Counted from the stretch's first letter, positions 12,157 to 34,547 are shown. The stretch: DNA of 64,000 nt from an uncultured Planctomycetota bacterium (GCA_963849325.1 CAWKHF010000010.1:1-64000); one strand, 5' to 3'. The notes: generated by a model from the letters alone, not told the origin. Numbers and translations are program-made.

Positions 12157-12216
12157 GCGAATAACTCGGCGACGGGCACGGGAAAGCGGGGCCAATGCTG
12201 GCAAGCCTCTTGGCGA
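12157..12216 (-). pseudogene. Relic of the 3' end of the Uma2 gene at 12967-13536
   Basis: 12157-12198 matches 12971-13012 at 35/42 nt by hand alignment; it translates HWPRFPVPVAELFA versus HLPGFRVHVAELFA. Confidence 0.75.
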
Positions 12217-12237
12217 AATATCGACGTCAACCGCGTG

Positions 12238-12906
12238 TCACGGAGGGCCGGGAAGCGGCAGTGTCGGCCGCTGCGACATTTGCTGCCGAACCCACGCTCG
12301 GAACTGGCGCACGAGCGCGGCATCATCGGTCTGCCCACACGGAGCGAGGAAGGGAGGCAGGTCCGCGGACGCCAGCTGCGGGAAGGACAGACTGTTGGGC
12401 CGCACGGCGTACGTCCCGGTCTCCAGGATGTGGAAAGCAATTCCTCCGCTGTTCAGACGCCAGACTTCGGGCACGCCCAGGACGGCGTAAATGCTCATTC
12501 GGTCGAGGGAGCTGCTGGTGATATCGACCTCGACGGCCAGATCCGGCGGTGGATCGGTGCGCAGATCCAGACGGCGTTTGCCCCGCAGACGCGGCGCGTT
12601 GGCGATCCAGTAGCAATTGTCAGGCTCCAGACCGCGACTCTTCCGCCGTCGCCGCAAGGTGACGGAACCACCGAGTCGGCAGGGTAAGTTCAACTCCTCA
12701 ATGAGCACGTCAATGAATCGCCCCAACAATCGGCCGTACTCTTCGTGCTCCCAAAGCGGGCTCATGATTTCCAGCGTTCCTCGATCGTAGGTGAGGCGAA
12801 ATCCCCGCCGCGACGCAAAGGCACGCAGAAGGCGGCCATAGAGACGCCAATCGATGTCGCGCAGCACGGCCAACCGAGGGCCAGCCATCGGAGCAGCCGT
12901 GGACAT
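12238..12906 (-). CDS. Uma2-family (DUF820) PD-(D/E)xK endonuclease-like protein
   Basis: RLTYDRGTLEIMSP, GLEPDNCYWI, PPPDLAVEVDITSSS, YAVLGVPEVWR. Confidence 0.92.
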   Translation of the reverse strand: MSTAAPMAGPRLAVLRDIDWRLYGRLLRAFASRRGFRLTYDRGTLEIMSPLWEHEEYGRLLGRFIDVLIEELNLPCRLGGSVTLRRRRKSRGLEPDNCYWIANAPRLRGKRRLDLRTDPPPDLAVEVDITSSSLDRMSIYAVLGVPEVWRLNSGGIAFHILETGTYAVRPNSLSFPQLASADLPPFLAPCGQTDDAALVRQFRAWVRQQMSQRPTLPLPGPP

Positions 12907-12966
12907 GAGACCTATCTCCGTTCTCGTTCGGGCGGTGGAATGCGGGTGCGACAGGATCAGGCCGGC

Positions 12967-13536
12967 TCAGGCGAACAACTCGGCGACGTGTACGCGGAAG
13001 CCGGGCAAATGCGGTTCGCCGGACAACTCCTGGCGGACGTTGACCGACTCCGGTTCCTGATCGGGACGGTAGATGGTCACCGTGCGGTCGTGCGGATCGA
13101 CGATCCAAACCAGGGGCACGCCGGCCTCCCGATACTGGTCGATTTTCTCGTCGATTTCCTCCACGGTATTGCTGGGCGACAGGATCTCCACCGCCAGCAC
13201 AGGCACTCCGTCGATCAACGTGGTATCGTCGGGCTGTTGCGCCGCCACTTCGGCGGAGACGTACAACACGTCGATGCCAACGGTGGTATCCGGATCGCGC
13301 GTCAAGCGCACGCCCGCCTCGCCACCCAAGACGGACCCGCGCGGCAGGGGCTGCTGGTCCAACCAGGCATCCAGAACGTGTCCGACTCGAATCATGGCCC
13401 GGCTGTGCCAGCGATTGCGATAGGTCATCGGCTTCTCCCGCAACTGACCGCGGATCAGCCAGCGCTCGACGCCGTCGTCGGGCAGGGCCAGCAGCTGCTC
13501 TGTTGTCATTAGGCTTGTCGCTTGCGTCGCGGTCAT
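12967..13536 (-). CDS. Uma2-family endonuclease-like protein
   Basis: MTTEQLLALPDDG, GVPVLAVEILSPS, KIDQYREAGVPLVWIVDP, LPGFRVHVAELF. Confidence 0.92.
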   Translation of the reverse strand: MTATQATSLMTTEQLLALPDDGVERWLIRGQLREKPMTYRNRWHSRAMIRVGHVLDAWLDQQPLPRGSVLGGEAGVRLTRDPDTTVGIDVLYVSAEVAAQQPDDTTLIDGVPVLAVEILSPSNTVEEIDEKIDQYREAGVPLVWIVDPHDRTVTIYRPDQEPESVNVRQELSGEPHLPGFRVHVAELFA

Positions 13537-13549
13537 GTTTAACCTCCCT

Positions 13550-13942
13550 TCAATCGAACAGACCCAGTTGCAGCCGTGCTTCCTCGGACATGCGGCTCAT
13601 CTCCCACGGTGGCTCCCAGACGAGTTCGACCTTGGCGGACGTGACACCGGGTACGGCCTGCACCTTGTTCTGCACGTCGGCGGGCAGGGCGCCGGCGACG
13701 GGACAGGCGGGACTGGTCAGCGTCATGCGGATGGCCACGGCCCCCGAGGGATCGATGTGCAGATCGTAGATCAGCCCCAGTTCGTAGATATTGACCGGAA
13801 TCTCAGGGTCATAGCAGCTGCGCAGAGCGGCGAGGACGCGCTCTTCGAGACTGGCGTCCGCATCGGCGGAGGGGACAGGCGGCGGTGAGGACTGGTCACC
13901 CTCCAGGGGCAGGGAGAGGCGCTGACGGGGTTGGTCGTCCAT
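13550..13942 (-). CDS. sufT: DUF59 Fe-S cluster assembly protein (SufT/PaaD-like)
   Basis: DPEIPVNIYELGLIY, MTLTSPACPVA, VWEPPW, MSEEARLQLG; last gene of the suf operon. Confidence 0.88.
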   Translation of the reverse strand: MDDQPRQRLSLPLEGDQSSPPPVPSADADASLEERVLAALRSCYDPEIPVNIYELGLIYDLHIDPSGAVAIRMTLTSPACPVAGALPADVQNKVQAVPGVTSAKVELVWEPPWEMSRMSEEARLQLGLFD

Positions 13943-13954
13943 CGTGGGGGTCTC

Positions 13955-15724
13955 TCATTCCTTGCGGCCGGAGAGCGTGGCCGCGAACTGACGGATGCGC
14001 TGAACCATCGCGGCCAGGCCGTTGCGGCGGCCGAGCGTCAGATGCTGGTCCAGCCCGAGGCGCGCGAAGAAACCCTCGATGTCGAACTCCAGGATGTCTT
14101 CGGCCCTCTGGCCGGAGTAGAGGCGCTGCAACACGGCGATCAGGCCGCGCACGAGGTCGGCGTCGCTGTCGGCCAGGAACTCGACCACGTCGGTGCTGCC
14201 CGGACGCTTCCGCGCCGACAGGAACACCGTGCTCTGGCAGCCGCGGACACGATTGGCCTCGGTGCGGAATACGTCGGGCAACGCCGGCACCTCCTCGCCG
14301 CGATCGAGCAGGTACTGATAGCGCTCGACCCAATCGTCGAACAATTCGAATTCCTCGGCCAGTTCGTCGGCGGCGGCTTGCGGACTGTCGGCGGCGGCGC
14401 GCGGGTAGGCCGGTTCGGCGACCCTTGCGGACGCCGTGGGTTGGTGTTTCGAGGCGGCGCCGGCGAGGATGTCGCGCAGCGCATCGATGAAGCAATCGAC
14501 CTCCGCCATCGTGTTGTACATCGCAAACGAGGTGCGCGTCGTGCCGGGGATGTCGAAGCGGTCCATCACCGGCTGGCAGCAGTGATGCCCGGTGCGGACG
14601 GCGATGCCTTCCAGGTCGAGCTTGGTGCCGATGTCCAGCGACGCCATCGGCGGCTCCTCGATCACGAACGAGATCACGGCCGTCTTGTGCGGGGCGTTGC
14701 CGATCAGGCGCACGCCGGGCAGTTGCTGCATCTTTTCGGTGGCGTAACGCAGCAGCGCCTCCTCGTGGGCCGCGATCCGCTCCAGGCCGACCGACTGGAC
14801 GTAATCGAGGGCGGCGCCCAGGCCGACGGCGCCGGCGATGTGCGGCGTGCCGGCCTCGAACTTGCTCGGCAGGTCGGCATACGTCGTCTTGGCGAACGTG
14901 ACCGATTTGATCATGTCGCCGCCGCTCTGGTACGGCGGCATGCGCTCGAGCAGATGCGCCTTGCCGTACAGCGCGCCGATGCCGGTCGGGCCGTAAATCT
15001 TGTGACCGGACAGGACGAAGAAATCGCAGTCCAGCTCGCGCACGTCAATGGGCAAGTGCGGCGCCGATTGGGCGCCGTCGAGCAGCACCAGCGCGCCGCG
15101 GGCATGCGCCAACTCGATGACGCGCCGAACCGGGACGATCGTGCCCAGCGAGTTGGACACGTGGACCACCGACACCAACCGGGTGCGATCGGAGAGTAGC
15201 TTTTCATACTCGTCGAGGAGGAATTCGCCATCGTCGCTGATGGGCACGACGCGCAGCACGGCCCCGGTCTGCTCGCAGAGCATCTGCCAGGGCACGATGT
15301 TGGAGTGATGCTCCATCGTCGAGACGACGATCTCGTCGCCGGCGCGGAGGTTGGGCCGGCCCCAGCTGTGGGCGACGAGGTTGATGCCCTCGGTGGCGCC
15401 GCGGACGAAGACGACCTCGCGAGCTTCGGCGGCGCCGAGAAAGGCGCGGACTTTCTGCCGCGCCTCCTCGTAGGCGCGGGTGGCGCGTTCGCCGAGCAGG
15501 TGAACGGCGCGGTGGATGTTGGCGTTGTCGTGGCTGTAGTAGTGCTGCAAGGCGTCGAGCACCGCCCGCGGCTTCTGCGTGGTGGCGGCGTTGTCCAGGT
15601 ACACCAGCGCTTGACCGTGGACCTCGCGGCGGAGAATGGGGAAGTCTTCGCGGACGTGCATCACGTCGAAGCCTCCAGATGGAACGGAGCGTCGCGGGGC
15701 CACGGGGGTCGGATGAATGCTCAT
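13955..15724 (-). CDS. sufS: Cysteine desulfurase SufS fused to SufE
   Basis: YLDNAATTQKP, EHHSNIVPWQ, SGHKIYGPTGIG, RTGHHCCQP, then SufE domain DWVERYQYLLDRG...VRGCQSTV...ADSDADLVRGL...RRNGLAAM in one uninterrupted ORF. ATG at 15724 overlaps the sufD stop. Confidence 0.93.
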   Translation of the reverse strand: MSIHPTPVAPRRSVPSGGFDVMHVREDFPILRREVHGQALVYLDNAATTQKPRAVLDALQHYYSHDNANIHRAVHLLGERATRAYEEARQKVRAFLGAAEAREVVFVRGATEGINLVAHSWGRPNLRAGDEIVVSTMEHHSNIVPWQMLCEQTGAVLRVVPISDDGEFLLDEYEKLLSDRTRLVSVVHVSNSLGTIVPVRRVIELAHARGALVLLDGAQSAPHLPIDVRELDCDFFVLSGHKIYGPTGIGALYGKAHLLERMPPYQSGGDMIKSVTFAKTTYADLPSKFEAGTPHIAGAVGLGAALDYVQSVGLERIAAHEEALLRYATEKMQQLPGVRLIGNAPHKTAVISFVIEEPPMASLDIGTKLDLEGIAVRTGHHCCQPVMDRFDIPGTTRTSFAMYNTMAEVDCFIDALRDILAGAASKHQPTASARVAEPAYPRAAADSPQAAADELAEEFELFDDWVERYQYLLDRGEEVPALPDVFRTEANRVRGCQSTVFLSARKRPGSTDVVEFLADSDADLVRGLIAVLQRLYSGQRAEDILEFDIEGFFARLGLDQHLTLGRRNGLAAMVQRIRQFAATLSGRKE

Positions 15725-16989
15725 GCGTCCTCCTCGCCGGACTCGGCCGACGGCAGATGATGCGCCTCCAGCAAGCTCCGCTCCAACTCCTGGCGCACCT
15801 TCGCCACCTGGATGCGGCTGACGATGTCGTTGGCGAAGGCGTAGGTCAGCAGGCTGCGCCTCGGCCAGGCCGACGCCGCGCGCCGCAGGTAAAAGAGCGA
15901 CTCGGCGTCGAGTTGGCCGACCGTGGCGCCGTGCGTGCATTTGACGTCGTCGGCGTAGATCTCCAGCTGCGGCTTGGTGTTGATGGTGGCGTCGTCGGAC
16001 AATAGCAGCGTCTGATTGGTCTGCTTGGCGTCGGTCTTCTGGGCGTCCTGGCGGACGTAGATTTTGCCGTTGAACACGCCGCGCGCCTTGCCGTCGAGGA
16101 TGCCCTTGTACAGCTCATGGCTGGCACAATGAGGATAAGCGTGATCGATAAAGGTGTGGTTATCGACCAATTGTTGTCCGCCGGCTTGATACAGACCGTT
16201 GAGCGTGCATTCGCCGCCTTCGCCGTCGAAGACGGCGTTGATCTCGTTGCGGACCCATTGTCCGCCCCGCGTGACGGCGTGCGACGAGAAATGGGCGGCG
16301 CGGCCGAGTTGCACCTGCATGGTCGCCTGGTGGAACGCCCGATCGCCTTCGCGCTGCACCTTGTAATGATCGACGACGGCACCAGCGCCGACGACGATTT
16401 CCGTCACGGCATTGGTGAGGTACGGATGTCCCAATGGACCACTATAGCTTTCGACCAACGTCACCTGACTCTTCTCACCCACGACAACAAGGCAGCGGCG
16501 ATGCCAAGCGTGGGGCACTGCCGCAGTGCCAGCGTGGAAATCGAGAAGGATCGGTTCCTCAATCACCGCGCCCGGCGGGAGGTACACGAAGACGCCGTTG
16601 CGGAGAAAGGCCGTATTGAGGGCGGTGAAGGGGTGTTTCTTCCAGTCGGCATGGCGCGCCAGGTGCGGTTCGACGAGGGCGGCATGCTTTTGCATGGCCT
16701 CGGCCAAATCGCAGACGAGGACGCCCTGGGGCCGTTTCGGAGCGTGGAACGAGTACGAGACGGCCGCCGGATCCAGCGGCGCCGGCTCGAACGGCACCTG
16801 CGCCAACGGGGCGACCGGAGTGAAGCGCCATTCCTCGTCGCGCGGGCCGGGGAAACCCAACTCGACAAAGCGCGCGGCGGCGGCCTTGCGCAGTCGATGC
16901 ACAGCCGGCGTGCCGGCGGCGGACAACTCGCGCTCCAGCCGCTCGAAGGCGGCGAGATAGGTGTTCTGTCGTTCGATCACTTCCGTCAC
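15721..16989 (-). CDS. sufD: Fe-S cluster assembly protein SufD
   Basis: DEEWRFT, FTALNTAF, YKGILDG, FNGKIYV, AQKTDA, TKPQLEIYADDVKCTHGATVG. Short garbled stretch near 15860-15885 suggests compensating indels. Confidence 0.93.
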   Translation of the reverse strand: MTEVIERQNTYLAAFERLERELSAAGTPAVHRLRKAAAARFVELGFPGPRDEEWRFTPVAPLAQVPFEPAPLDPAAVSYSFHAPKRPQGVLVCDLAEAMQKHAALVEPHLARHADWKKHPFTALNTAFLRNGVFVYLPPGAVIEEPILLDFHAGTAAVPHAWHRRCLVVVGEKSQVTLVESYSGPLGHPYLTNAVTEIVVGAGAVVDHYKVQREGDRAFHQATMQVQLGRAAHFSSHAVTRGGQWVRNEINAVFDGEGGECTLNGLYQAGGQQLVDNHTFIDHAYPHCASHELYKGILDGKARGVFNGKIYVRQDAQKTDAKQTNQTLLLSDDATINTKPQLEIYADDVKCTHGATVGQLDAESLFYLRRAASAWPRRSLLTYAFANDIVSRIQVAKVRQELERSLLEAHHLPSAESGEEDA

Positions 16990-17006
16990 GGCTGCTTCCT
17001 CGCTGC

Positions 17007-17771
<765 letters not shown>

Positions 17772-17808
17772 TATTCCTTCTCTTGCAGTTACCTCACTTA
17801 CTTCCCGA

Positions 17809-18060
17809 TCAGATGCGCTCCACCCAAACAATCGTTACGAGGCGGTCGTCCGGGCTGACGGTGAAGGTCATAGCCAGCGGCCGATCAATGAGAACGCGCC
17901 GACCATTCTTCGCCCGCCCTTTTTGGTCGGCATCTCGCAAGAGGCTTTGCTCCATTCGATTCGCCGCATCGGCAACCGCCTGACGATCCAAAGCCTGATT
18001 CCAGAGGTTAGCCAACTCATCCTCCGCGTCCGGGATCCAATTGACGGTATACCTCATCAA
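17809..18060 (-). CDS. RelE/ParE-superfamily toxin-like protein (cassette C)
   Basis: MRYTVNWIPDAEDELANLW N-terminus, 83 aa, 4-nt overlap with the upstream small gene. Confidence 0.65.
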   Translation of the reverse strand: MMRYTVNWIPDAEDELANLWNQALDRQAVADAANRMEQSLLRDADQKGRAKNGRRVLIDRPLAMTFTVSPDDRLVTIVWVERI

Positions 18061-18314
18061 GGCGTCTCCCGGGACCGAAGGCGCCGCATGATTTCCTCTA
18101 GCGACACGCCCTTTCCCGCTTGCGCCTTTAGACGACGTTCCACTTCCAAGGGATCGAATAACTTCTCGGCCTTTTCGTACAGCGCCAGTTCTTCCGCTGA
18201 GACCAACGGGGTGAAGTGTCCCAATACCTTACCGTTGACATCGCGGAGTTCCACAGTCTCCAGGACGCCCCGCAGGTGGTCGCAAAATTCCGCATCGATG
18301 GTCAAGTAGTTCAT
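18057..18314 (-). CDS. Putative antitoxin (cassette C)
   Basis: MNYLTID...VELRDVNGKVLGHFTP...GVSLEEIMRRL; GGAGAGG RBS; paralog of the next two antitoxins. Confidence 0.65.
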   Translation of the reverse strand: MNYLTIDAEFCDHLRGVLETVELRDVNGKVLGHFTPLVSAEELALYEKAEKLFDPLEVERRLKAQAGKGVSLEEIMRRLRSRETP

Positions 18315-18358
18315 GGTCCTCTCCAGGATCGGACTTATCGGGCGTTCACCTTCCCGCT

Positions 18359-18414
18359 GCCGCGCGGCGTTTCCTTGTGGTCTACTCGGGTGTGCGGTTA
18401 TTGATTTCGAGCAT
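18359..18414 (-). pseudogene. Relic of the sufC 5' end
   Basis: 45/57 nt match to 17715-17771 with one gap; reads MLEINN-HTRVDHKETPRG versus SufC MLTINNLHARVDDKEILRG. Confidence 0.85.
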
Positions 18415-18435
18415 CGCGTTGATCTCAACATTTCG

Positions 18436-18687
18436 TCAGTTCATTCGCCGAACTTGCATGATCCGCACCATGCAATCCCCCGGATCAACGTGAAAGAGGT
18501 ATTCCAGAGGATCGTCTCGGTACGTGCGAAAGATACCGCGCGGGTTCCCCTTCGTGTGGGCATCATTCGCTAACGCGCTTTCGATCCGGTTCGAGGCATC
18601 GGCAACCGCTTGTTGATCCGTAGCTCTATTCCAGATGTGCGCCAGTTGGTTTACCGCGGTCTTATTCATGACGACCGTGTATTTCAT
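18436..18687 (-). CDS. RelE/ParE-superfamily toxin-like protein (cassette B)
   Basis: MKYTVVMNKTAVNQLAHIWN...DQQAVADASNRIESAL; ATGA overlap with its antitoxin. Confidence 0.65.
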   Translation of the reverse strand: MKYTVVMNKTAVNQLAHIWNRATDQQAVADASNRIESALANDAHTKGNPRGIFRTYRDDPLEYLFHVDPGDCMVRIMQVRRMN

Positions 18688-18941
18688 CCCTGAATCGCGC
18701 CAGCGCGGATTTGCTTCCAAGCTTCCGCAAGGCTAAGACCCTGGTCACGCTCTTCAGCCAAGGTTCGCTCTGCTTCGGCCAGGTCGAAGTGCTTCGCAGC
18801 ACGTTCGCTCTTGTCGATTTCGTCCGCGAACACGGGCGTAAACCGACCTATCACCTTGCCATTGACATCCCGGATCTCGGCTGGCTCCATTATGCCAGCC
18901 AGTCGTTCCAGCAGTTCTTGATCCACGGTCAGATAGTTCAT
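18684..18941 (-). CDS. Putative antitoxin (cassette B)
   Basis: MNYLTVD...AEIRDVNGKVIGRFTP...GLSLAEAWKQI; acidic, 85 aa. Confidence 0.65.
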   Translation of the reverse strand: MNYLTVDQELLERLAGIMEPAEIRDVNGKVIGRFTPVFADEIDKSERAAKHFDLAEAERTLAEERDQGLSLAEAWKQIRAGAIQG

Positions 18942-18953
18942 GGCTATTCCCCG

Positions 18954-19027
18954 TTATCCCACGCTGCCTTCCAAACTCACCCCGAGCAGCTTCTGCGCCT
19001 CGACGGCGAATTCCATCGGCGGATTCA
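18954..19027 (-). pseudogene. Displaced duplicate of the sufB 3' end
   Basis: 66/74 nt identical to 19559-19632; encodes the identical [25 protein letters not shown]. Confidence 0.95.
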
Positions 19028-19279
19028 GGACTTCACCCGATAGACCTGCAAGATCCTCGCCAGGCAATCAGCCGGAAGTACCTCGAATGCCACAACCAAA
19101 GGCGGTGCTCGAAAAAAGTAGATCCCTCCAAACGAGCGGCCTTTGCGATCGGGATCGATACCTAATTCCCGGTCGATGAGGTTAGCTGCATCCGTGACCG
19201 CCTGACGATCCAAGGGCTGATTATAGATGCGCGCCAGTTCATTGCGCGCGGCGGGCAGCCACGTCACGGTATATTTCAT
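19025..19279 (-). CDS. RelE/ParE-superfamily toxin-like protein (cassette A)
   Basis: MKYTVTWLPAARNELARIYN...DRQAVTDAANLIDREL; ATGA overlap. Confidence 0.65.
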   Translation of the reverse strand: MKYTVTWLPAARNELARIYNQPLDRQAVTDAANLIDRELGIDPDRKGRSFGGIYFFRAPPLVVAFEVLPADCLARILQVYRVKS

Positions 19280-19530
19280 CCGGGATGCTCCAACGCACGG
19301 AGATAATTCAATACTTCTTCCGTCGTATGTCCCCGTTCTTTGGATGCCGCACGACGTTTCAATTCCTCCAGATCGAACTGCGCGATGTCCTGCTGATAGA
19401 GCATGTCTTCGGCTCGGCCTGCGGGCGTAAAGTAGCCCAAGAGGTTACCCTCTTCATCGCGGATTTCCGCTGCCTCCTTGATGGGGGTCAAGAAAGCCTG
19501 GACAACATCATTCGCAGTCAGAATGGTCAT
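19276..19530 (-). CDS. Putative antitoxin (cassette A)
   Basis: AEIRDEEGNLLGYFTP...GHTTEEVLNYL; 84 aa, acidic. Confidence 0.65.
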   Translation of the reverse strand: MTILTANDVVQAFLTPIKEAAEIRDEEGNLLGYFTPAGRAEDMLYQQDIAQFDLEELKRRAASKERGHTTEEVLNYLRALEHPG

Positions 19531-19558
19531 GGCGCCGCTCCCCTTCCACCCCTTGCAG

Positions 19559-21010
19559 TTAGCCCACGCTGCCTTCCAAACTCACTCCAAGTAGCTTCTG
19601 CGCCTCCACCGCGAATTCCATCGGCAGGTTCAAAAACACCTGCTTGCAAAAGCCATTGACGATCATGTTGACGGCGTCCTCGGCCGACAGCCCGCGCTGC
19701 TTGCAGTAGAAAATCTGGTCCTCACCAATCTTCGACGTGGACGCCTCGTGCTCGACCTTCGCCGTGGGGTTCTTGACCTCGATGTAAGGAAACGTGTGCG
19801 CTCCACAGCGGTCGCCCAGGAGCAGCGAATCGCACTGGCTGTAGTTACGCGCGCCGGTCGCTCCCTTCTGCACTTTCACCAGGCCGCGGTAGGTGTTCTG
19901 GCCGTTGCCGGCGGAGATGCCCTTGGAGACGATGGTACTCCGCGTGTTCTTGCCGATGTGGATCATCTTCGTGCCGGTGTCGGCCTGCTGCTTGTGATTG
20001 GTCAGCGCCACCGAGTAGAACTCGCCGACCGCGTCGTCGCCCTGCAGGATCACGCTGGGATACTTCCAGGTAATGGCCGAGCCGGTCTCCACCTGCGTCC
20101 AGGAGATTTTCGAGCCTGCGCCGCGGCAGGCGCCGCGCTTGGTCACGAAGTTGTAAACGCCGCCGCGCCCTTCCTTGTCGCCGGGATACCAGTTCTGCAC
20201 CGTCGAATACTTGATCTCCGAGCGCGCGCCGACGGCGACCAGTTCGACGACGGCGGCGTGCAGCTGGTTCTCGTCGCGCATCGGCGCCGTGCAGCCTTCC
20301 AAATAGCTGACGTACGCGCCTTCCTCGGCGACGATCAGCGTGCGCTCGAACTGGCCGGTGCCGGAAGCGTTGATGCGAAAATAGGTGGACAACTCCATCG
20401 GACAGCGCACGCCCCTGGGGACGTAGCAGAACGAGCCGTCGCTGAAGACCGCCGAGTTGAGGGTGGCGAAGAAGTTGTCGTTGTACGGCACCACCGAGCC
20501 GAGGTACTTGCGCACCAACTCCGGATGCTCGCGCACCGCCTCGGAGAAGGAGCAGAAGATAATGCCCAGCTCGGCCAGCTTGCCCTTGAAGGTCGTCGCC
20601 ACCGACACGCTGTCGAAGACGGCATCGACGGCGACGCCGCTCAAGCGCTTCTGTTCGTCCAGCGAGATGCCCAGCTTCTCGAAGGTGCGGCGCAGCTCCG
20701 GATCGACTTCATCCAGGTTGTTGAGCGTCTTCTTCGGCTTGGGGGCCGAGTAGTAAATGATGTCCTGGTAGTCGATGGGCGCGATGCGCAGCTTGGGCCA
20801 CCAGCGCGGCTCCTGCATCGTCTGCCAGTGCCGGAACGCTTTCAGCGCGCAATCCAGCAGCCAATCCGGCTCGCGCTTCTTGGCGGACAGGAGGCGAATG
20901 ATGTCCTCGTTGAGACCGCGCGGCAGCGTCTCGGCTTCGATGTCCGTCACGAAACCGTGCTGATATTCGCGGTTGGCGAGTTCCTGAATCGTATGGGTCG
21001 CGGTCGTCAT
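19559..21010 (-). CDS. sufB: Fe-S cluster assembly protein SufB
   Basis: [72 protein letters not shown]. Confidence 0.97.
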
Positions 21011-25794: not shown

Positions 25795-25870
25795 CTCCGA
25801 TCGTCAACCGTTGGATCGTAGACAAATCTCCATCCGTTTTCGCTCTTCTTCTGGTGAGGGCGACGGAATC

Positions 25871-26398: not shown

Positions 26399-26399
26399 G

Positions 26400-26828
26400 G
26401 TGATGAATCCTTCCGATCTCCCTCGGGAGCTGGCCGATCTGGAACGCCAGTTGGCCGAGCGCGCCGTCCCGAAACCGACCGAGGCGTTTCGCCGGCGCGT
26501 GCTGACGGCCATGCGAACCGATCGCGCTCGTCCGGACGGCTGGCGCTTCGCGGCCGCCCTGGTGGCGGCCGTGTTGCTATGTCTCAACCTCGCTCTGAGC
26601 CTGGCGAACCATCGGGCCTGGTCCCCGGTAGAGGGGGACAAGGATGGAGATGTCGAAACCGGCGTCCGCGAATTGAGACAAGAAAACCCTGATTTGTCCG
26701 AAGAAGAAGCCTATCAGGTTGTGGTCCTCCGCCGAACGGCCCCCTCTCTGGCTGCTGTGGCGGCCTTGCCGTCGTCGCCAGACGAGATTTTCTCGTGGGA
26801 ACGGAGCGCGTCATGGGATACGCCTTGA
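26400..26828 (+). CDS. Single-TM putative anti-sigma factor
   Basis: Directly follows the ECF sigma; LERQL...P...FRRRVL, then a TM helix. Confidence 0.6.
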   Translation: MMNPSDLPRELADLERQLAERAVPKPTEAFRRRVLTAMRTDRARPDGWRFAAALVAAVLLCLNLALSLANHRAWSPVEGDKDGDVETGVRELRQENPDLSEEEAYQVVVLRRTAPSLAAVAALPSSPDEIFSWERSASWDTP

Positions 26829-28485: not shown

Positions 28486-28532
28486 CGATTGCCGTCTTGT
28501 CGGTTCGTGCGATCGTCGTTACCGTGGCGGTC

Positions 28533-28946
28533 ATGAATTCCGACGCACCCGTCGCTGGGCGACGCGCTGCCTCGCGCCTGGCCTCGTTTCGTTACGCCTT
28601 CGCGGGCTGGTGGTACGTCCTGCGTAGCCAACGCAACGCCTGGATTCACGCAGTCGCTTCCCTCGCCGTCATCGCCGTCGGACTTTGGTTGCGGTTGGGG
28701 CGGATCGACTGGGCGCTTCTCATTCTGACCGTCGCGCTGGTGTGGGTGGCCGAGTTCGTCAACACCGCCGTCGAGTCCGTGGTGGACCTCTTATCGCCGG
28801 ACCTTCATCCGCTGGCGAAAGTCGGCAAGGATGTGGCGGCAGCGGCCGTCCTGATCGCCGCTCTGGCCGCGGTTGTGGTGGGCCTGCTCCTTCTCGGCCC
28901 GCCGCTGTGGGCACGAATTCAGTTCGGAGTTCTGTTCCTCGTTTAG
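28533..28946 (+). CDS. dgkA: Diacylglycerol/undecaprenol kinase family
   Basis: SFRYAFAG...SQRNAWIH...AEFVNTAVESVVDL...HPLAKVGKDVAAAAV. Confidence 0.9.
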   Translation: MNSDAPVAGRRAASRLASFRYAFAGWWYVLRSQRNAWIHAVASLAVIAVGLWLRLGRIDWALLILTVALVWVAEFVNTAVESVVDLLSPDLHPLAKVGKDVAAAAVLIAALAAVVVGLLLLGPPLWARIQFGVLFLV

Positions 28947-29002
28947 CCGCGACGCGCAGCGGAGCGCGGCTGCCGCGCTCCGCTGCGCGTCGCGGCTAAA
29001 CG
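28940..29002. repeat. Long perfect palindrome, family shared with 51057-51124
   Basis: cgtttagccgcgacgcgcagcggagcgcgg / ccgcgctccgctgcgcgtcgcggctaaacg; lies between convergent genes. Confidence 0.9.
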
Positions 29003-29009
29003 AAATTAT

Positions 29010-29951
29010 TCAAGATAATGGTGTTAGCAAGGACTTCATGACGGCCTGGCTGCCAAGGGGATGCCACTGGCCCCACCATTTGAGAAAGCGTCGCCGTTCC
29101 TGCGGTAGCCGCCGCTGGTGCGAACGCAGCAGCTGATCGATGCCGGGCTGAAGCCGCGGCCAGGCCGTCGCGCAGGTGCGGCGCAGGCTCTCGCGCAGGG
29201 AGGCAAGCCGGCCCGCGGCCACGTGGCTATCGTTGGCCCGACCGAGGATTTCTTGCAACTGCTCGATGCGCGGATACAGTTCGCCGCGGAACGTCGGATC
29301 GAAGCAGTCGGCGAACACTTCCATCGCGTAGCGCAGCCGCTTGCCGGCGATGCGCACTTGATGGAGCTGAGCGTAATCCGCGAGGTCGCCGAGCGCGGCC
29401 CGTTCGAGGCCTTGCAGTCGCTCGAACAGCATCGGCCGGGCGAGATCCACCAGGATGGACGGATTGCCCGGAGCGGGTCGGATCGCCTCGATGGTGCGGG
29501 CGAGGAACGTCTCGAAGGTGGCCCCCTGCTCCTCGTAGACCGTTTCGAGCTGGGCGTGTGCGGCGGTGCGCTGGCCGACCGCGTAGCCGATGAGAAAATC
29601 CAGTCCGGCGCGATGGCGGGCGTCCGCCTCCGCCTCGCGCGCGAGCAGGTCGGCCAGAAAGACATCCCAGTCGCGGGCGGCGCCGGCGGCGCGACGCAGT
29701 TCGCGCAGGCGTCGCCGCCCCTTGCGGTACGCCTTGGCCGGCAGGCAAGCGGCGAAGAGACGCAAGGCGGCGTCGGCGCGGCGCGTGCCGACGCGCAGCT
29801 GGTGGACGTATTCGATGTCGCGATCTGCTTCCAGGGCGGCGCGGGGCAGATTATCCTTCACCACTTGCAGGCGTGCGAACAGGACGTGCCGCGCCGCCTC
29901 GTCCAGCGGGCTATCCGGTTTCAGATCGTTGATCCATTTCCCATCCGACAT
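29010..29951 (-). CDS. CHAD-domain (polyphosphate-binding) protein
   Basis: VHQLRVGTRR, GAARDWDV, LHQVRIAGKRLRY, LQEILGRAND. Confidence 0.92.
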   Translation of the reverse strand: MSDGKWINDLKPDSPLDEAARHVLFARLQVVKDNLPRAALEADRDIEYVHQLRVGTRRADAALRLFAACLPAKAYRKGRRRLRELRRAAGAARDWDVFLADLLAREAEADARHRAGLDFLIGYAVGQRTAAHAQLETVYEEQGATFETFLARTIEAIRPAPGNPSILVDLARPMLFERLQGLERAALGDLADYAQLHQVRIAGKRLRYAMEVFADCFDPTFRGELYPRIEQLQEILGRANDSHVAAGRLASLRESLRRTCATAWPRLQPGIDQLLRSHQRRLPQERRRFLKWWGQWHPLGSQAVMKSLLTPLS

Positions 29952-29960
29952 GGACGATTC

Positions 29961-31811
29961 TCAATGTCCGTAAAGTCCGGTGATGCTCGCTGACTGCTCG
30001 CGCTGATGCAGCCAGGACGCGACCTCGCCGGTTTCGGCGGCGAGTTTCTCGACCTTCTTCCGCTCGTCGCGCAGCGCCTGGGCCACGTCGCCGGGAATGG
30101 GTGCGTACATCGTCTCCAGTTCCTGGCCGATGCGCTGCTCCAGGCGGCGACGGAACTCGCCGCGGATGGCCGGCCAGCGCAGTGGTAGCACCAGTGTAAT
30201 GAGCAGATGCAGAATGACCAGCACAATCAAGAGGACGATCAACGGCAAAAGCGCGTCGGCCGGGTGGAGGACGGCGTTCTCCGCCGTCGGGTTGAAGTAG
30301 CGCCATAGCAGGACGATCAGGGCGGCCAGCAGGGCGACGGGCGGCACCCAGTTGCCCAGCCAGACGACGACGGCCTGCGTGACGCGGCGCAGGCCGGTCG
30401 GCCGGGACCACTCCTGCTCGACCTGCTGGAGTACCTCGTTGAGAATGCCGGCGTAGCGCTGCCGCCAGTCCAGGGCCGCGCGCGACTCCATCGGCTCGTT
30501 GAGGACGTCGAGCGGAAAGCCCTGATGGTCGGCCTCGACGAGCAAGCGGTTGGACAGCGCCTTGCCGCGGGCGTCGAGGTGGCGATTGCCGGCCACGTCA
30601 CTGCATGCCTTGGTGAAGGTCGAGAGGTCCCAGTGGGTCGGCGTCTCAATGGTGCTGGATGAGCGTGGCATGAACGGAATGCGGTCGCGCAGCGTGCTGC
30701 CGACGTACTTGGCGCGGGTGAACAGGTGCAGATACCAGGCCATGATGCCGTGAAAGCGGCGCTGTTCCTCCAGGGCGAAGTGGTGCTCGATCTCGCGCTG
30801 ATAGGGTTCGAGCGTGTTGAGGAGGACGTCGCTGGTGGCGGCGGCTTCCTCGGTCAACGGCCGGACCCAGGCGGCGCGGGTACGCTCGGCGATGTCCGTC
30901 AGGTCCGGCGGGCTGGCGGCGGCCAGTGCCTGCTGCATGTGTTGCAACAACTGGCTGACGCCGCGCGCCTTGATCGCCTCGATCTCCAGGCGTGTCAGGC
31001 CCATTTCCAGCCAGTCCGTCAATTCGCGGAACTGCTCGCCCTCCGGCAATTCGGCCGGCGGAGCGCCGTTGCTCGACACGCGATCGACCCACAACTGAGC
31101 GCAGGTGCGGAAGAGCAAGGGCGACTCGAAGCCCTCGGCTTGCAGGTCGCGCCGCAAATCTTCGTCGGGCCGCACGCCACTGTTGCCCTGGTGCAGACAG
31201 CGGTCCCACTTGTTGAGGACGAAGGCGAAGGCGCGGCGCTGGCGCTGCTGCAAAAACAGCTCCCAGCCGAGCCGATCGTGATACTTCTCCTGCGAGCCGA
31301 CATAGAGGACGATGTCGGCCACCGGCAGCAGGCGCAGGAGTTTGTCGCGGTTGCTCAGGTCGTTGCTGTCGAGGTCCGGCGTATCGACGAGGACTTTTTG
31401 TTCCAGGGCCGGTCGATCGTGCGGGGCGAGCCGGCAGTGGCGCAGGGCGGGGTCGAGCCGGTCGGGCTTGATCGACTGATGATAGTACACGACCGGGTTG
31501 CGCGTGGTCGGGCGGGCGAACGATGCCTGGGCGATGGAGCCGCCGGCCAGGGCGTTGAGCAGGGTCGATTTGCCGACGCCGGTTCCGCCCATGAGCATGA
31601 TGACCAACAACGGCCGATCCACGTCCAGCGCCTCGGCCTGGCGGCGCAGGTCGATGGCCACGCCCTCCAGGGTGGCACGGTTAAGGGTCGAGAGGGGATA
31701 GCGGTGAGGGACATCGAGCCAACCGCGCAGGCCGCGTTCCAGTCCGAGCAGTGCCGGCGACAGCGTTCGCAGTAGAGGAGCGCTATCGGTTGTCGTTGCC
31801 GCATCGTTCAT
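29961..31811 (-). CDS. Membrane-anchored TRAFAC GTPase (Era/dynamin-like)
   Basis: GGTGVGKS (G1), RPTT (G2), DTPD (G3), NKWD (G4), helical region, two C-terminal TM helices. Confidence 0.85.
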   Translation of the reverse strand: MNDAATTTDSAPLLRTLSPALLGLERGLRGWLDVPHRYPLSTLNRATLEGVAIDLRRQAEALDVDRPLLVIMLMGGTGVGKSTLLNALAGGSIAQASFARPTTRNPVVYYHQSIKPDRLDPALRHCRLAPHDRPALEQKVLVDTPDLDSNDLSNRDKLLRLLPVADIVLYVGSQEKYHDRLGWELFLQQRQRRAFAFVLNKWDRCLHQGNSGVRPDEDLRRDLQAEGFESPLLFRTCAQLWVDRVSSNGAPPAELPEGEQFRELTDWLEMGLTRLEIEAIKARGVSQLLQHMQQALAAASPPDLTDIAERTRAAWVRPLTEEAAATSDVLLNTLEPYQREIEHHFALEEQRRFHGIMAWYLHLFTRAKYVGSTLRDRIPFMPRSSSTIETPTHWDLSTFTKACSDVAGNRHLDARGKALSNRLLVEADHQGFPLDVLNEPMESRAALDWRQRYAGILNEVLQQVEQEWSRPTGLRRVTQAVVVWLGNWVPPVALLAALIVLLWRYFNPTAENAVLHPADALLPLIVLLIVLVILHLLITLVLPLRWPAIRGEFRRRLEQRIGQELETMYAPIPGDVAQALRDERKKVEKLAAETGEVASWLHQREQSASITGLYGH

Positions 31812-31956
31812 GGCGTCTCTTCCGTCGGACGGCCCTCTCCGCCGTGTCCTTCATCCTACTTCGGCCAAGCGGACCTCGGTAGCTTCTTTATACCGCTTTG
31901 CGCACCGCCGTCTCCTTACAAAAACGCATAAATAATCGTTCTCCCAACTGGCTCTG

Positions 31957-32102
31957 AGAGTCTGTCCGGTAAGCCCCTCTCCCCCGCTTCGGGGGAGAGG
32001 GGTTGGGGGTGAGGGGGAGAGAAACTCGCGGAAAGCGCACCCCCTCACCCCAACCCCTCTCCCCCGGAGTACCGGGGGAGAGGGGCTTTCGGGACAGACT
32101 CT
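31957..32102. repeat. Composite inverted repeat built from CCCCTCTCCCCC...GGGGGAGAGGGG units (MITE/REP-like)
   Basis: Outer arms agagtctgtcc / ggacagactct enclose two inverted hairpin units; the same unit occurs at 54039-54083. Confidence 0.8.
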
Positions 32103-32130
32103 GAGACGCAAACAGCTCCGCGCACCTCCG

Positions 32131-32159
32131 TTGGTCTTCCGGTGTCCGTCATCTATAAT
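32131..32159 (+). promoter_or_regulatory. Candidate proS promoter
   Basis: TTGGTC-17 bp-TATAAT, 34 bp upstream of the ATG, which has an AGGAG RBS. Confidence 0.55.
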
Positions 32160-32193
32160 CGCACCAACGCGAACCCTGGATCCAGGAGACGAC

Positions 32194-33708
32194 ATGGCCG
32201 CCGAGAAGATCACCCCCCGCGCCAAGGATTATTCGCAGTGGTACCTGGACATCGTCAACCGCGCCGGCCTGGCGGAAAACTCCGACGTGCGCGGCTGCAT
32301 GGTCATCAAGCCGCACGGCTACGCCATCTGGGAGAAGATGCAACGGGCGCTCGATCGCCTGTTCAAGGACACCGGCCACGTCAACGCCTACTTCCCGCTG
32401 TTCATCCCCAAATCGTTTCTGGCCCGTGAAGAGCAGATGGCCGAGGGCTTCGCCAAGGAGTGCGCCGTCGTCACGCACCACCGCCTCAAGGCCGTGCCCG
32501 GCGGCGGTATCGAGGTCGATCCGGAGGCGAGACTCGACGAGCCGCTGATCGTCCGGCCGACCTCCGAGACGATCATCTGGAACACCTACCGCACCTGGGT
32601 CCAGAGCTACCGCGACTTGCCGCTGCTCATCAACCAGTGGGCCAACGTGGTTCGCTGGGAGATGCGGACGCGGCTGTTCCTGCGCACGGCCGAGTTCCTC
32701 TGGCAGGAGGGCCACACCGCCCACGCCACGCAAGCGGAGGCCGAGGAGGAGACGCGGCGCATGGTCGAGGTGTATCGCACCTTCGCCGAGGAATGGATGG
32801 CGATGCCGGTGCTGGTCGGTCCCAAGAGCGAGGGCCAGAAGTTTCCCGGCGCCGTCTACACGCTCTGCATCGAGGCCCTGATGCAGGACAAAAAGGCTCT
32901 GCAAGCGGGCACGAGCCACTTCCTCGGCCAGAACTTCGCCAAGGCGTTCGACGTGAAGTTCCAGGACCAGCAGGGCAAGCTCGAATACGCCTGGGCGACG
33001 AGCTGGGGCGTGTCCACGCGGCTCATCGGCGGACTCATCATGACGCACAGCGACGACCAGGGCCTGGTGCTGCCGCCGCGTCTGGCGCCGATTCACGCCG
33101 TCATCGTGCCGATCTTCAAGACGCCGGAAGAGAAGGTCGCCGTACTGGAGGCGGCCCACAAGCTGGCTGGCAGCATCCGCGAGCTACCGCTGCGGGAATG
33201 GCTCAACTACGAGCCGGTGACGGTCAAGGTCGATGACCGCGAGCAGTATCAGCCGGGCTTCAAGTTCAACGAATGGGAGCTGAAGGGCGTGCCGGTGCGT
33301 GTCGAGTTGGGTCCAAAAGACCTCGCCAAAGGAGCTTGTGTGCTGGCGCGCCGCGATCTGCCGGGCAAGGAGGCGAAAGAGATGGGCGTGCCACTAACGA
33401 CGGCGGCGGCCCGCATCGGCGAAATGCTCCAGGGCATGCAAACCGCCTTGTTCGATCGGGCGCGCAAGTACCGCGACGAGAACACGCACGAGATCAATTC
33501 CTACGACGAGTTCAAAAAGATGATCGAGGAGCCGGGTGGTTTCCTGCTGGCTCACTGGGACGGCACGCGCGCGACGGAGGACCGCATCGCCGCCGAGACG
33601 AAAGCGACCATCCGCTGCATCCCGTTCGATCGCAAGGAGGAAACGGGCAAGTGCATGGTCACGGGCCAGCCGTCGGAGGGGCGCGTGGTGTTCGCCAAGG
33701 CGTATTAA
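32194..33708 (+). CDS. proS: Proline--tRNA ligase, archaeal/eukaryotic type
   Basis: [51 protein letters not shown]-terminal FAKAY. Confidence 0.97.
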
Positions 33709-33829
33709 AAAGCGATCTTGCTTCGTCGAAATCCTGTGGTTTTCGGGCGAGCGAGGTCGCATCGGCGCCCCGAATACTTTTCCTCGGGGCGCTTTGCTGA
33801 CCGAATGCCTTTGCGAAAACATGAACTAG

Positions 33830-33964
33830 GGATTTGTCGATACCAAGGGACGGATTTGGATAAAGGACCGAGCCCACGCGGGCGATCCGGACCATTGGGA
33901 CGTGCAAGAAGACGGCGGCAAGAAGTATTTCCGAGTCGATCCGAACGGTAATCTGCTGCCCTAG
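33830..33964 (+). pseudogene. Polymorphic-toxin-like C-terminal tip fragment (not in the supplied ORF track)
   Basis: Hand translation GFVDTKGRIWIKDRAHAGDPDHWDVQEDGGKKYFRVDPNGNLLP-stop; probably continues upstream through a 1-nt indel at about 33830. Confidence 0.55.
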
Positions 33965-34008
33965 CACATTATCGCTATTCGGGGACCATCGCAGCAAGGG
34001 AGTAGGAG

Positions 34009-34467
34009 ATGCCTGTGCAGAGAAAGCAGCGGGGACAACCCGAAAACGATAACGAGGATCTTGGCCTGATGGCGAACGGTTCTTCGGGCGACTGGGAGGT
34101 TGCCGTAGACGAGACCACAAAGGGACCGGATCGCTGGTTTGTCCAACTCGAAGGTCCGTCGGTCTGCTTTTCGTTTGAGGTTCCTTCACCCGAGATGATT
34201 CCCAGGGCACTCGACTTCCTCGGCGGGCCCTCATCGTCCAAGGGGCCATATGCTGGGTTTCCCGCGGAGAACGGCTCGTTGGTCCTTGGCAAGCACCGAC
34301 AAACTCCCGTGATTCTTGTCCGAGACGATGAGTACAAGGGTCGCTTTTTCCTCGTGATAGGGCAAGAGGCTGATGTCGTTGTGCGCTTCACGATTGCAGG
34401 GCAGGACTGGAAGGACATCCAAGAGGCACTTCGTCAAGCGACGGAAGACCTTGAAGATGAGGACTAG
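34009..34467 (+). CDS. Acidic hypothetical protein, candidate immunity protein
   Basis: GGAGTAGGAG RBS, atypical (AT-richer) codon use, directly downstream of the toxin-like tip. Confidence 0.65.
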   Translation: MPVQRKQRGQPENDNEDLGLMANGSSGDWEVAVDETTKGPDRWFVQLEGPSVCFSFEVPSPEMIPRALDFLGGPSSSKGPYAGFPAENGSLVLGKHRQTPVILVRDDEYKGRFFLVIGQEADVVVRFTIAGQDWKDIQEALRQATEDLEDED

Positions 34468-34497
34468 GGCCGACGCCATGAACTCGGCGCCGACGGC

Positions 34498-34547
34498 TCG
34501 CAAGAAGGAAGCCGACATATGCAGACATGGTCACGGGCCAACCATCG
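34498..34547 (+). pseudogene. Relic of the proS 3' region
   Basis: 38/46 nt match to 33630-33675 plus a 4-nt insertion, including an exact catggtcacgggcca. Confidence 0.65.

Follow-up and report, generated by a model that had tools for sequence, protein, structure and literature searches.

Small accessory gene cassettes in a 64,000-nucleotide (nt) stretch of DNA from an uncultured Planctomycetota bacterium (GCA_963849325.1, CAWKHF010000010.1:1-64000; this whole stretch is referred to as the window) are each bracketed by the live end of a neighbouring gene and a short, diverged copy of that same end, termed a relic here. The anatomy is present at ten or more sites in the genome under study (G000; 8.16 Mb assembled in 14 contigs, 84.7% complete), and the cassettes include predicted toxin-antitoxin (TA) pairs stacked between sufB and sufC of the suf operon. 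We suggest that the cassettes probably arose by insertion with long target duplication, the route being extended here to TA cassettes, and then spread and stacked by homologous recombination. The comparisons draw on the genomes of relatives (G001 and so forth), mostly fragmented metagenome assemblies that are a sample of their groups.

The first-pass annotation of the window had described four pairs of duplicated gene ends, and all four were found where it placed them. With the copy at the live gene given first and the relic second, they are:

19558-19632 and 18953-19027, minus strand: pair 1, sufB 3' end, 75 nt, 89% identity without gaps, gapped local score 58
17714-17771 and 18358-18414, minus strand: pair 2, sufC 5' end, 45 of 57 columns identical with a single 1-nt gap, score 32
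12962-13012 and 12148-12198, minus strand: pair 3, Uma2 3' end, 51 nt, 78% identity, score 29
33630-33675 and 34498-34547, plus strand: pair 4, proS 3' region, 38 of 50 columns identical with a single 4-nt gap, score 24

As a null, the terminal 150 nt of 1393 random gene termini were aligned to 1.5-kb segments of the same strand at a distance of 30-60 kb. Best local scores in this null have a 99th percentile of 20, which all four pairs exceed. Scores of at least 24, 29 and 32 occur in fractions of 0.0022, 0.0014 and 0.0007 of the null, respectively, and a score of at least 58 in 0 of 1393. The proS pair is the weakest of the four, as it ends 33 nt before the stop codon and is broken by an indel; at its score, about 0.3 matches would be expected by chance among the approximately 140 termini in the window. 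The material between the copies is also as first described, namely cassettes A and C of the suf operon, a second Uma2 gene and two open reading frames (ORFs) of 77 and 152 amino acids (aa) after proS. Genes were called with our own rough codon-usage caller. The GC content at third codon positions (GC3) is 0.55-0.67 in the cassettes against 0.80-0.89 in the host genes, and we therefore consider the cassettes foreign in composition.

The suf operon lies on the minus strand and comprises an Rrf2 regulator, sufB, three two-gene cassettes, sufC, sufD, sufS-sufE and a SufT-like gene, with the two Uma2 genes next. In the order of the operon, the sufB-sufC region contains:

19559..21010, minus strand: sufB (Pfam SUFBD_core, E 7.6e-80), whose last 24 codons and stop (19558-19632) are the live copy of pair 1
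19025..19530, minus strand: cassette A, with antitoxin-like A1 (19276-19530) and RelE/ParE-fold toxin-like A2 (19025-19279)
18953..19027, minus strand: sufB 3'-end relic, an intact 24-codon frame with stop codon that begins on the A2 stop codon
18436..18941, minus strand: cassette B, with B1 (18684-18941) and B2 (18436-18687), a paralog of A and C
18358..18435, minus strand: a 21-nt spacer and the sufC 5'-end relic (18358-18414), which has a 1-nt deletion
17809..18314, minus strand: cassette C, with C1 (18057-18314) and C2 (17809-18060)
17007..17771, minus strand: sufC (Pfam ABC_tran), whose first 57 nt (17714-17771) are the live copy of pair 2

Cassette B thus sits between the sufB relic and the sufC relic. 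All three cassettes are co-oriented with the host gene and tightly packed against it. The proposal that such a module can use the transcription of its host gene agrees with this layout (sense orientation, a few bases from the host gene), from which we infer that the sufB-sufC cassettes could be read from the host gene's transcript.

Based on fold and layout, we predict that cassettes A, B and C are type II TA pairs of the RelE/ParE superfamily. Each consists of a gene of 84-85 aa placed directly upstream of one of 82-84 aa, and in all three pairs the upstream gene, for which no family match was obtained, overlaps the toxin gene by 4 nt (ATGA). Neither gene of any of the three cassettes reached a Pfam or NCBIfam threshold, the antitoxin-like partners remaining unmatched, and a hidden Markov model search of the toxin alignment against PDB sequences returned chance matches only. 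Sub-threshold matches to Pfam ParE_toxin were seen in 9 of 17 members of the toxin family (best E 7.5e-5). As the sequence-profile searches did not place A2, the toxin was placed by fold search. An AlphaFold2 model of A2 built on 17 relatives has a predicted local distance difference test (pLDDT) value of 93.8, and Foldseek recovers 35 PDB matches for it at E ≤ 0.001, mostly RelE, ParE, YoeB and HigB toxins. The top matches are the RelE2 and RelE1 toxins, with a template-modelling score of 0.81 and a root-mean-square deviation of 1.6 Å.

Further co-directional pairs of the same RelE/ParE-like family lie between other genes of G000, at C5:1093453-1093928, C3:165059-165549 and C6:82655-83181. 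No gene-end relics are detectable at these three pairs, the flank scores being 19 or lower. From their translated starts, and without a family scan, we take the genes flanking one of them to be a ThiF/MoeB-type enzyme and a class-V aminotransferase. A protein search for cassette A found two loci in genome contigs (one a 41%-identical copy) and two in metagenome contigs (one of the G007 type); these single-protein scans of genome and metagenome contigs yielded no new cassette A junctions.

The bracketing arrangement extends well beyond the window. We scanned G000 for ungapped direct repeats and retained those in which one copy sits at a gene terminus and covers 30 nt or more of that gene, the second copy lies past this terminus and is not an in-frame part of a called gene, and the sequence has no more than two copies in the genome. 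Terminus-plus-relic pairs number 39 at a spacing of 150-3000 nt, whereas each of the two distance controls (10-13 kb and 20-23 kb) yields 1; restricted to identities of at least 80%, the numbers are 13 near pairs and 1 in each control. A gapped version of the scan gives scores of at least 24 at 123 of 5671 termini against about 12 expected, a count that still includes neighbouring paralogs. Unfiltered scans are swamped by a CRISPR-like array, repeat proteins and palindromes resembling repetitive extragenic palindromic (REP) elements, and the control matches are mostly such REP-like palindromes. The excess of near pairs bears out the view of a general, repeated process, which draws on 5' as well as 3' ends and has left relics at different stages of decay. 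Five of the sites outside the window are:

uvrB 3' end: repeat of 73-80 nt, 88% identity, insert with genes of 67 aa and 167 aa
RlmL-type methyltransferase gene (rlmL) 3' end: repeat of 99 nt, 89% identity, insert with genes of 94 aa and 97 aa
FGE-sulfatase/LRR gene 3' end: repeat of 72 nt, 94% identity, insert with three small genes including a PIN toxin
acrB-type gene 3' end: repeat of 85 nt, 86% identity, no called gene in the insert
PRiA4_ORF3 gene 5' end: repeat of 88 nt, 84% identity, insert with a 202-aa gene and a ParB_N-Dam methylase

Pfam and NCBIfam gave no assignment for the cassette proteins at rlmL, uvrB and a site on contig C7. Overall, the repeats measure 75, 57, 51 and 46-50 nt in the window, 72-99 nt at the other genome sites and 229 nt in G007, those of G000 each having at most two copies in the genome, and the inserts of 0.5-1.9 kb contain no integrase or transposase family. 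At C9:37000-40000 of G000, a Uma2-like gene has its 3' half present twice, with about 450 nt of other sequence between the copies; two called ORFs there are identical in their first 60 residues, and this duplication is a larger version of the gene-end pattern.

The differences between live ends and relics bear on the origin of the copies. A copy that decays in place acquires changes at all codon positions; random changes in these segments would be synonymous in 16-28% of cases, and we adopted a generous null of 40% to make room for synonymous drift of the live end. The peptide encoded by the last 24 codons of sufB is identical in all nine congeners compared, and the relic also encodes it, with one change at its 5' edge and no indel. 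Seven differences at the sufB relic are synonymous, all at third positions, and one is non-synonymous; its identity is 88% to the end of its own sufB and 89-91% to the ends of G004, G003 and G001. The corresponding counts of synonymous and non-synonymous differences are 8 and 1 at uvrB, 7 and 4 at rlmL, 2 and 2 at FGE, 4 and 8 at acrB, 3 and 10 at PRiA4, 1 and 4 at C7_282k, 1 and 4 at C10_327k, 1 and 5 at sufC, 4 and 6 at Uma2, and 6 and 6 at C10_121k. Pooled over the seven repeats of at least 85% identity, 30 of 54 differences are synonymous, a modest excess (P = 0.015 against 0.40).

The uvrB site provides a direct view of the process. In G006, G002 and G005 a Uma2-like gene follows uvrB directly, which represents the empty site, while the cassette occupies the same junction in G000 and G007 (the G007 relic lacks 60 nt). 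The G000 relic and the DNA downstream of it are colinear with the three empty-site genomes, the relic ending in the tail ...RRKR*, whereas the live uvrB of G000 ends in ...RKRSSEPKG*, the type seen in G007, G008 and G004. G006 and G002 are the nearest genomes to G000 over the final 1.5 kb of uvrB (approximately 0.9); in the last 90 nt the identity falls to 0.71 and 0.70, while that to G007 stays at 0.86, an identity profile that indicates a recombination break near the 3' end of the gene. We conclude from the swapped tail and the drop in identity that the native terminus was displaced and that the cassette brought in the terminus of a different lineage. In the case of rlmL, each of the two copies retains a stop codon of its own and the tails differ, those of relatives being too variable to assign the native copy.

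A mixture of allele types is found at the sufC site. The ortholog of cassette B is the sole cassette in G003, and that of cassette C is the sole cassette in G006 and also adjoins sufC in G005. The 21-nt spacer and MLEI-type start of the sufC relic match the junction of B with sufC in G003 and G001, while the live sufC of G000 has an MLTINN start and the cassette-C-type spacer of G006 and G005. The whole B module (sufB end, B, spacer, sufC start) is colinear with the single-cassette locus of G003 at 76% identity, so that the B module with both relics looks like a pasted piece of an allelic locus. In the aligned 36-nt block of the sufC relic, five of six differences are non-synonymous.

The three sufB-sufC cassettes are paralogous and regularly spaced at about 600-640 nt, as unequal crossing-over would produce if it had duplicated a gene end plus cassette in situ, with the cassettes diverging afterwards. 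Yet the cassette proteins are only 34-48% identical to one another (tblastn), and every one of the three cassettes can be matched at the DNA level to another species, with 76-86% identity across the aligned stretch; the sufB relic, at 89% identity, is therefore much younger than the three cassette lineages. Moreover, the inserts at uvrB, rlmL and proS have no local paralog. We thus consider tandem duplication in situ highly improbable.

The remaining two sites of the window, at the Uma2 and proS genes, comprise:

12967..13536, minus strand: Uma2-1 (Pfam Uma2, E 4e-26), with the live copy of pair 3 at its 3' end (12962-13012)
12238..12906, minus strand: Uma2-2 (Pfam Uma2, E 9e-21), inserted between Uma2-1 and the relic
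12148..12198, minus strand: Uma2 3'-end relic, which reads ...PVPVAELFA and has lost the stop codon
32194..33708, plus strand: proS (Pfam ProRS-C_1 and tRNA-synt_2b), with the live copy of pair 4 (33630-33675) inside the gene
33814..34460, plus strand: 647-bp mobile cassette, holding the end of the 77-aa ORF and the 152-aa ORF
34498..34547, plus strand: decayed proS 3'-region relic, one frame of which reads MVTGQPS

Uma2-2 is only distant kin of Uma2-1, the two giving a weak local protein alignment. As for the proS cassette, the two ORFs that had been labelled toxin-tip/immunity-like are present, but the label is putative, as neither the 77-aa nor the 152-aa ORF has a match in Pfam or NCBIfam; a G007 fragment homologous to the supposed toxin tip is also short and not joined to a large toxin gene. 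A hairpin with 27-nt arms (89% complementary) and an 8-nt loop lies at 34593-34654, 46 nt after the proS relic, and relatives have similar sequences at other places; a displaced terminator is one possible reading of this hairpin, a further dispersed palindrome another.

The 647-bp proS cassette (GC3 0.55 against 0.885 for proS) has an 87%-identical copy in G007 at another locus, after a nucleoside-hydrolase-like gene or domain. This copy is bracketed by a 229-nt direct duplication of the 3' part of the local gene (local score 171, approximately 87% identity), whose downstream copy carries an in-frame stop. The G000 ortholog of the G007 hydrolase gene (C2:243070-246708) has no cassette, the sole G000 match of the cassette being the one at proS, and the proS gene of G007 is followed by neither cassette nor relic. 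One cassette thus occurs at two unrelated genes with the local end duplicated each time, and the first arrival therefore duplicates the local target. For the same reason, neither a ready-made terminus nor a circle of fixed homology can explain first arrivals. The earlier proposal that modules arrive carrying a replacement terminus accordingly holds directly at uvrB and fits sufB and rlmL, but it fails for the first arrival of the 647-bp cassette at its two targets.

If first arrivals duplicate the target, then duplication might be all that happens: the insertion itself would leave a long target-site duplication (for instance through breaks staggered over a wide distance, or a template switch in repair), both copies would be native and only later decay would separate them. 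This is the simplest account of the 229-nt case in G007 and of the decayed acrB, PRiA4, Uma2 and sufC relics, where non-synonymous differences prevail, and a sufB relic in G005 is 98% identical to its live end. It leaves unexplained, however, why nearly all differences are synonymous in the intact frames at sufB (7 and 1) and uvrB (8 and 1), how the live uvrB acquired its tail together with the identity drop, and why the B module ends in a foreign-type sufC start and spacer. We therefore regard pure duplication as quite unlikely.

Bearing on repeated arrival, empty-site alleles exist in relatives, at uvrB in the three same-genus genomes described above and at sufB-sufC in the neighbouring family. 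We compared the sufB-sufC spacer in 31 genomes, namely G000, nine congeners and further members of the family and order. It is empty (35-53 nt) in 6 of the 31, all of the neighbouring family, measures 118-255 nt in 4 and is filled (466-2301 nt) in 21. Pairs of the RelE/ParE-like family occupy it in at least 13 of the 31 genomes, with one to three or more copies each. HicA-HicB is found in G002 and G022 and a HicB-like ORF in G035; a DUF3990 gene with a small partner fills the spacer in G005, G004 and G008, and PP2C-like and other genes also occur there according to a by-eye reading of translations. Belonging to the one RelE/ParE-like family that recurs there, the sufB-sufC cassettes of G000 are not random arrivals. 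Gene-end relics are present at this locus in four of the 31 genomes. In G009 cassette A is followed by a sufB-end relic and a 113-aa gene, in G005 the DUF3990 module by a relic (89 nt, 98%) and cassette C, and in G017, which belongs to another genus, a pair by a relic (51 nt, 84%) and a second pair; G007 combines cassette A with a different pair. Given the empty alleles, the turnover in content and the recurrent relics, we conclude that the sufB-sufC spacer is a landing pad across the family.

Two further observations concern this locus. The 118-nt sufB-sufC spacer of G001 retains the last approximately 19 codons of a B-type toxin and the allele-B spacer, so that its cassette was lost by internal deletion and not by precise excision. 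In G023 (C36:24700-30400), the sufB match is divided into two parts (query 26-720 and 717-1464) separated by about 1.1 kb, which suggests that the gene holds an intein or insertion.

The stacked locus of G000 can be read as three alleles (sufB/A/sufC, sufB/B/sufC and sufB/C/sufC) joined via their shared flanks, and an assembler might have concatenated co-occurring strain alleles in this way, all the more so as the assembly is probably a metagenome assembly with several frame-broken genes. Against this, among independently assembled genomes of other species G009 has the junction of cassette A with the relic, G007 has that at uvrB, and G005 and G017 each carry another sufB relic. The sufC relic, being frame-shifted and bearing non-synonymous changes, is not a live allele. 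An assembly artefact is thus extremely improbable.

The join between the A2 stop codon and the relic is identical in G000 and G009, after which G000 continues with cassette B and G009 with the unrelated 113-aa gene. The two relics share sequence states in their 5' parts, whereas the 3' part of the G009 relic has the synonymous states of G009 itself. These patterns are suggestive of the relic acting as a homology arm, with the right-hand crossover falling inside the relic and a naive sufB end as the recipient. A fixed cassette-relic junction with different downstream genes is also what small circles, the main variant of the first-pass annotation, would predict, that is, a non-replicating circle of cassette plus one gene-end copy that integrates by a Campbell-type RecA crossover and is excised between the flanking repeats. 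Such circles would give the same end product as duplication followed by recombination, direct repeats of 50-230 nt permit excision, and a cycle of invasion, amplification and release has been proposed for repeat-flanked restriction systems in the part of Furuta et al. (2010, PMC2853133) that treats their life cycle. But a circle bearing a proS end cannot duplicate an unrelated gene, and the 647-bp cassette has local duplications at two genes. Furthermore, the whole uvrB relic, including its 5' part, is of the native type and would require a crossover at the very edge of the homology. We consider circles as the general vehicle unlikely.

A recombinase encoded elsewhere would be a further candidate. 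The genome contains 17 tyrosine-recombinase (Phage_integrase) matches, and the same-orientation arrays resemble integron cassettes, so that site-specific recombination of the integron or tyrosine-recombinase type, with attachment sites in the gene ends, could be envisaged. The absence of a recognisable integrase or transposase from the window, as reported in the first-pass annotation, was corroborated by Pfam scans of the window ORFs (27 at E ≤ 0.01, 4 more, 48 at E ≤ 1e-5), which returned no such families; Phage_integrase has no match in the window and its nearest match is at C10:80385. By comparison of coordinates, no recombinase gene of this type lies within 14 kb of any site. Equally in line with that annotation, the junctions have no att motif in common. 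No inverted repeats of at least 12 nt within 150 nt occur anywhere in 17700-19650, which covers the sufB-sufC spacer, and hence none resembling attC. The repeats, at 46-229 nt, are copies of whichever gene is local. Taken together, these findings make site-specific recombination very unlikely.

At three independent cassettes the relic has its first base on, or no more than 1 nt from, the stop codon that closes the last cassette gene, which is tighter than random joins would be: sufB-A (window 19025-19027), uvrB (C12, approximately 796102-796107) and FGE-PIN (C5, 91777-91779). At the sufB-A and uvrB junctions, the cassette stop codon overlaps the first bases of the relic by 3-4 nt.

In order to rationalise these observations, we favour as the more probable route an insertion with long target duplication and, after it, homologous recombination that spreads and stacks the cassettes; the route may be pictured in three steps. 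First, and rarely, a cassette would land at or just inside a gene end, leaving 50-230 nt of the local end on both sides. Second, DNA of the form gene end, cassette, gene end could recombine into any relative that has the gene, a step supported at uvrB and presumed at the other sites. The gene body and live end would serve as one homology arm and the relic as the other, making this the linear equivalent of a Campbell single crossover; the DNA might be linear or a Campbell-type circle. The outcome would be a working gene with a partly foreign terminus, the recipient's own terminus being pushed downstream as the relic. This second step would explain why live ends are foreign and differences mostly synonymous, how one junction can be shared by genomes with different neighbouring genes, and how the B allele came to be pasted in. 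Third, clean allelic exchange of a resident TA pair would be counter-selected, since the antitoxin would be lost, and additive events would survive. As most passengers are TA pairs and replacement loses the antitoxin, cassettes would stack, and the sufB-sufC spacer would become a family-wide landing pad. ComEC and DprA genes are present in G000, although they also occur in non-competent bacteria and so do not imply competence. A Ku gene was not found in the 84.7%-complete G000 assembly.

Several points weigh against this route. Homology arms of 50-100 nt with a divergence of 10-15% should recombine inefficiently. Only three sites, all of them housekeeping genes (sufB, uvrB and rlmL), show a strong synonymous excess, which is missing at older or less conserved sites, and the differences at acrB, PRiA4, C7_282k, C10_327k, sufC and Uma2 resemble plain decay. 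No donor can be named for the sufB relic, whose 75 nt are 88-91% identical to the sufB ends of four species, and the shared junction of G000 and G009 could reflect one ancestral event with later downstream changes, as the informative sites are few. The G007 hydrolase gene was not restored by the insertion and runs from the left repeat into the insert, where it acquires a new tail. The proS relic stops short of the stop codon with no copy of the proS tail after it, which does not fit an A-B-[insert]-B-C layout, and the region downstream of proS is not syntenic in relatives. Finally, several genes of the window are split across reading frames in the assembly (Hsp70, FtsK and a GDH-like gene), and single-base indels in relics may therefore be assembly errors; the substitutions and the duplications themselves are unaffected by such frame-breaking indels.

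A bolder extension, which we put forward tentatively and do not favour, would see a recombinase-free mobile element: TA cassettes with duplicated ends of highly conserved housekeeping genes as portable arms, moved across species by the host's RecA into that same gene regardless of the downstream DNA. The relic would be a working part of such an element rather than a scar, and addiction, by blocking clean replacement, would lead to the pile-up. Spacers such as sufB-sufC would then be family-wide landing pads inside essential operons.

Other features of the assembly were recorded on the way. A palindromic REP-like element of about 30 nt, starting CGTTTAGCCGCGACGCG, lies just after many stop codons (window 28937-28969 and 51054-51086; approximately 590 matches genome-wide), and a second palindromic family, TCCGAGCCTGAAGCGTAAGCGAAG..., is dispersed as well; the two together dominate the control matches of the repeat scan. 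The CRISPR-like array is on contig C1 at approximately 439,800-449,600 and has 37-nt repeats with a period of about 72-75 nt in several dozen copies. The Hsp70 gene (9943-12141, plus strand), beside GrpE and a DnaJ-domain gene, is split over three frames, with positions 1-269, 311-442 and 454-559 of the Pfam HSP70 profile in separate ORFs. FtsK (51141-53444, minus strand) and the Glu/Leu/Phe/Val dehydrogenase-like gene (34771-36589, minus strand) are each split in two. The three genes are split either by assembly indels or because they are pseudogenes.

Since 2000, insertion with long target duplication has been on record as an unexplained way of gaining genes, tied to restriction-modification systems, for which it was reportedly described by Nobusato et al. 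(Gene 259:99). The new element here is the same anatomy for TA and other small cassettes. Clues to the mechanism are added by copies that stem from different lineages, by one cassette at two target genes and by junctions that are shared despite different downstream DNA. If the two-step route of duplication and recombination is true, small selfish modules could cross species without a mobility gene, essential operons would carry variable TA arrays, and a short out-of-frame copy of a neighbouring gene's end would give annotators a signature of recent gene gain.

In the sections of Furuta, Abe and Kobayashi (2010, PMC2853133) that define the phenomenon for restriction-modification systems, long target duplication is characterised by repeats above 30 bp in length, the existence of a relative with the empty site, and the lack of a mobility gene. 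A start or stop codon is frequently included in the repeats, which leaves the target gene whole; a property such as DNA breakage by the restriction system is suggested there as the driver, and a life cycle of invasion, amplification and release is put forward as well (PMC2853133). The corresponding passage of the review by Mruk and Kobayashi (PMC3874152) does not describe long target duplication for TA systems, and in the literature searched, judged mostly by titles and abstracts, neither long target duplication around TA cassettes nor a TA hotspot between sufB and sufC is described. Our sites share with the restriction-modification cases a small insert (below 20 kb) without a mobility gene, direct repeats above 30 bp that are long, variable and not multi-copy, a single copy at the empty site of relatives (uvrB in G006, G002 and G005; sufB-sufC in 6 of 31 genomes), spanned starts and stops, and an unsolved mechanism. 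They differ in their passengers, which are RelE/ParE-type and PIN TA pairs, Uma2, a ParB-Dam methylase and unassigned ORFs, and DNA breakage by restriction systems is therefore unlikely as a general cause. Restriction and modification genes are absent from the inserts, apart from an orphan ParB_N-Dam methylase at one site, and the case is accordingly a variant of insertion with long target duplication and not a strict member. Unlike in the restriction-modification cases, the two copies can stem from different lineages, to judge from the synonymous differences and the swapped uvrB tail, which suggests spread by homologous recombination after the first insertion, and the cassettes stack in one spacer across a bacterial family.

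Homology-facilitated illegitimate recombination, said to have been described in naturally transformable bacteria by de Vries and Wackernagel in 2002, Prudhomme et al. in 2002 and Meier and Wackernagel in 2003, adds foreign DNA by one homologous crossover in a conserved gene and one join elsewhere, and the cassettes may have entered in a similar way. By our own reasoning, a second join inside the anchor region would yield a duplicated gene end. In contrast to that process, the second join here may itself be homologous, between relic and gene end.

Integron cassette arrays and attC clusters lacking an integrase are compact, same-oriented, apparently promoterless and often rich in TA pairs, and they are expressed from outside. 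The cassettes described here are similarly compact, same-oriented and apparently promoterless predicted TA pairs stacked in an array. Their separators, however, are copies of the ends of neighbouring housekeeping genes, with neither attC hairpins in the sufB-sufC spacer nor IntI nearby, and the arrays are thus not integrons.

The closest analogy for the recombination step and for the stacking is provided, in our view, by the effector-immunity modules of type VI secretion systems (T6SS). For these, the part of Kirchberger et al. (2017, PMC5361080) concerned with module exchange describes displacement and stacking, proposes homology-facilitated illegitimate recombination and cites orphan Rhs and contact-dependent inhibition (CDI) toxin-immunity arrays. 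Entry beside a conserved upstream anchor, the pushing of older modules downstream because their loss is harmful, and arrays without an integrase are features that the T6SS modules, as portrayed in that part of the paper, and our cassettes would have in common. In the T6SS modules the conserved anchor belongs to the toxin gene itself, and the previous effector does not survive (PMC5361080). Here, by contrast, the anchors are unrelated housekeeping genes (sufB, sufC, uvrB and rlmL), whole cassettes are kept, and each event leaves a copy of the gene end behind.

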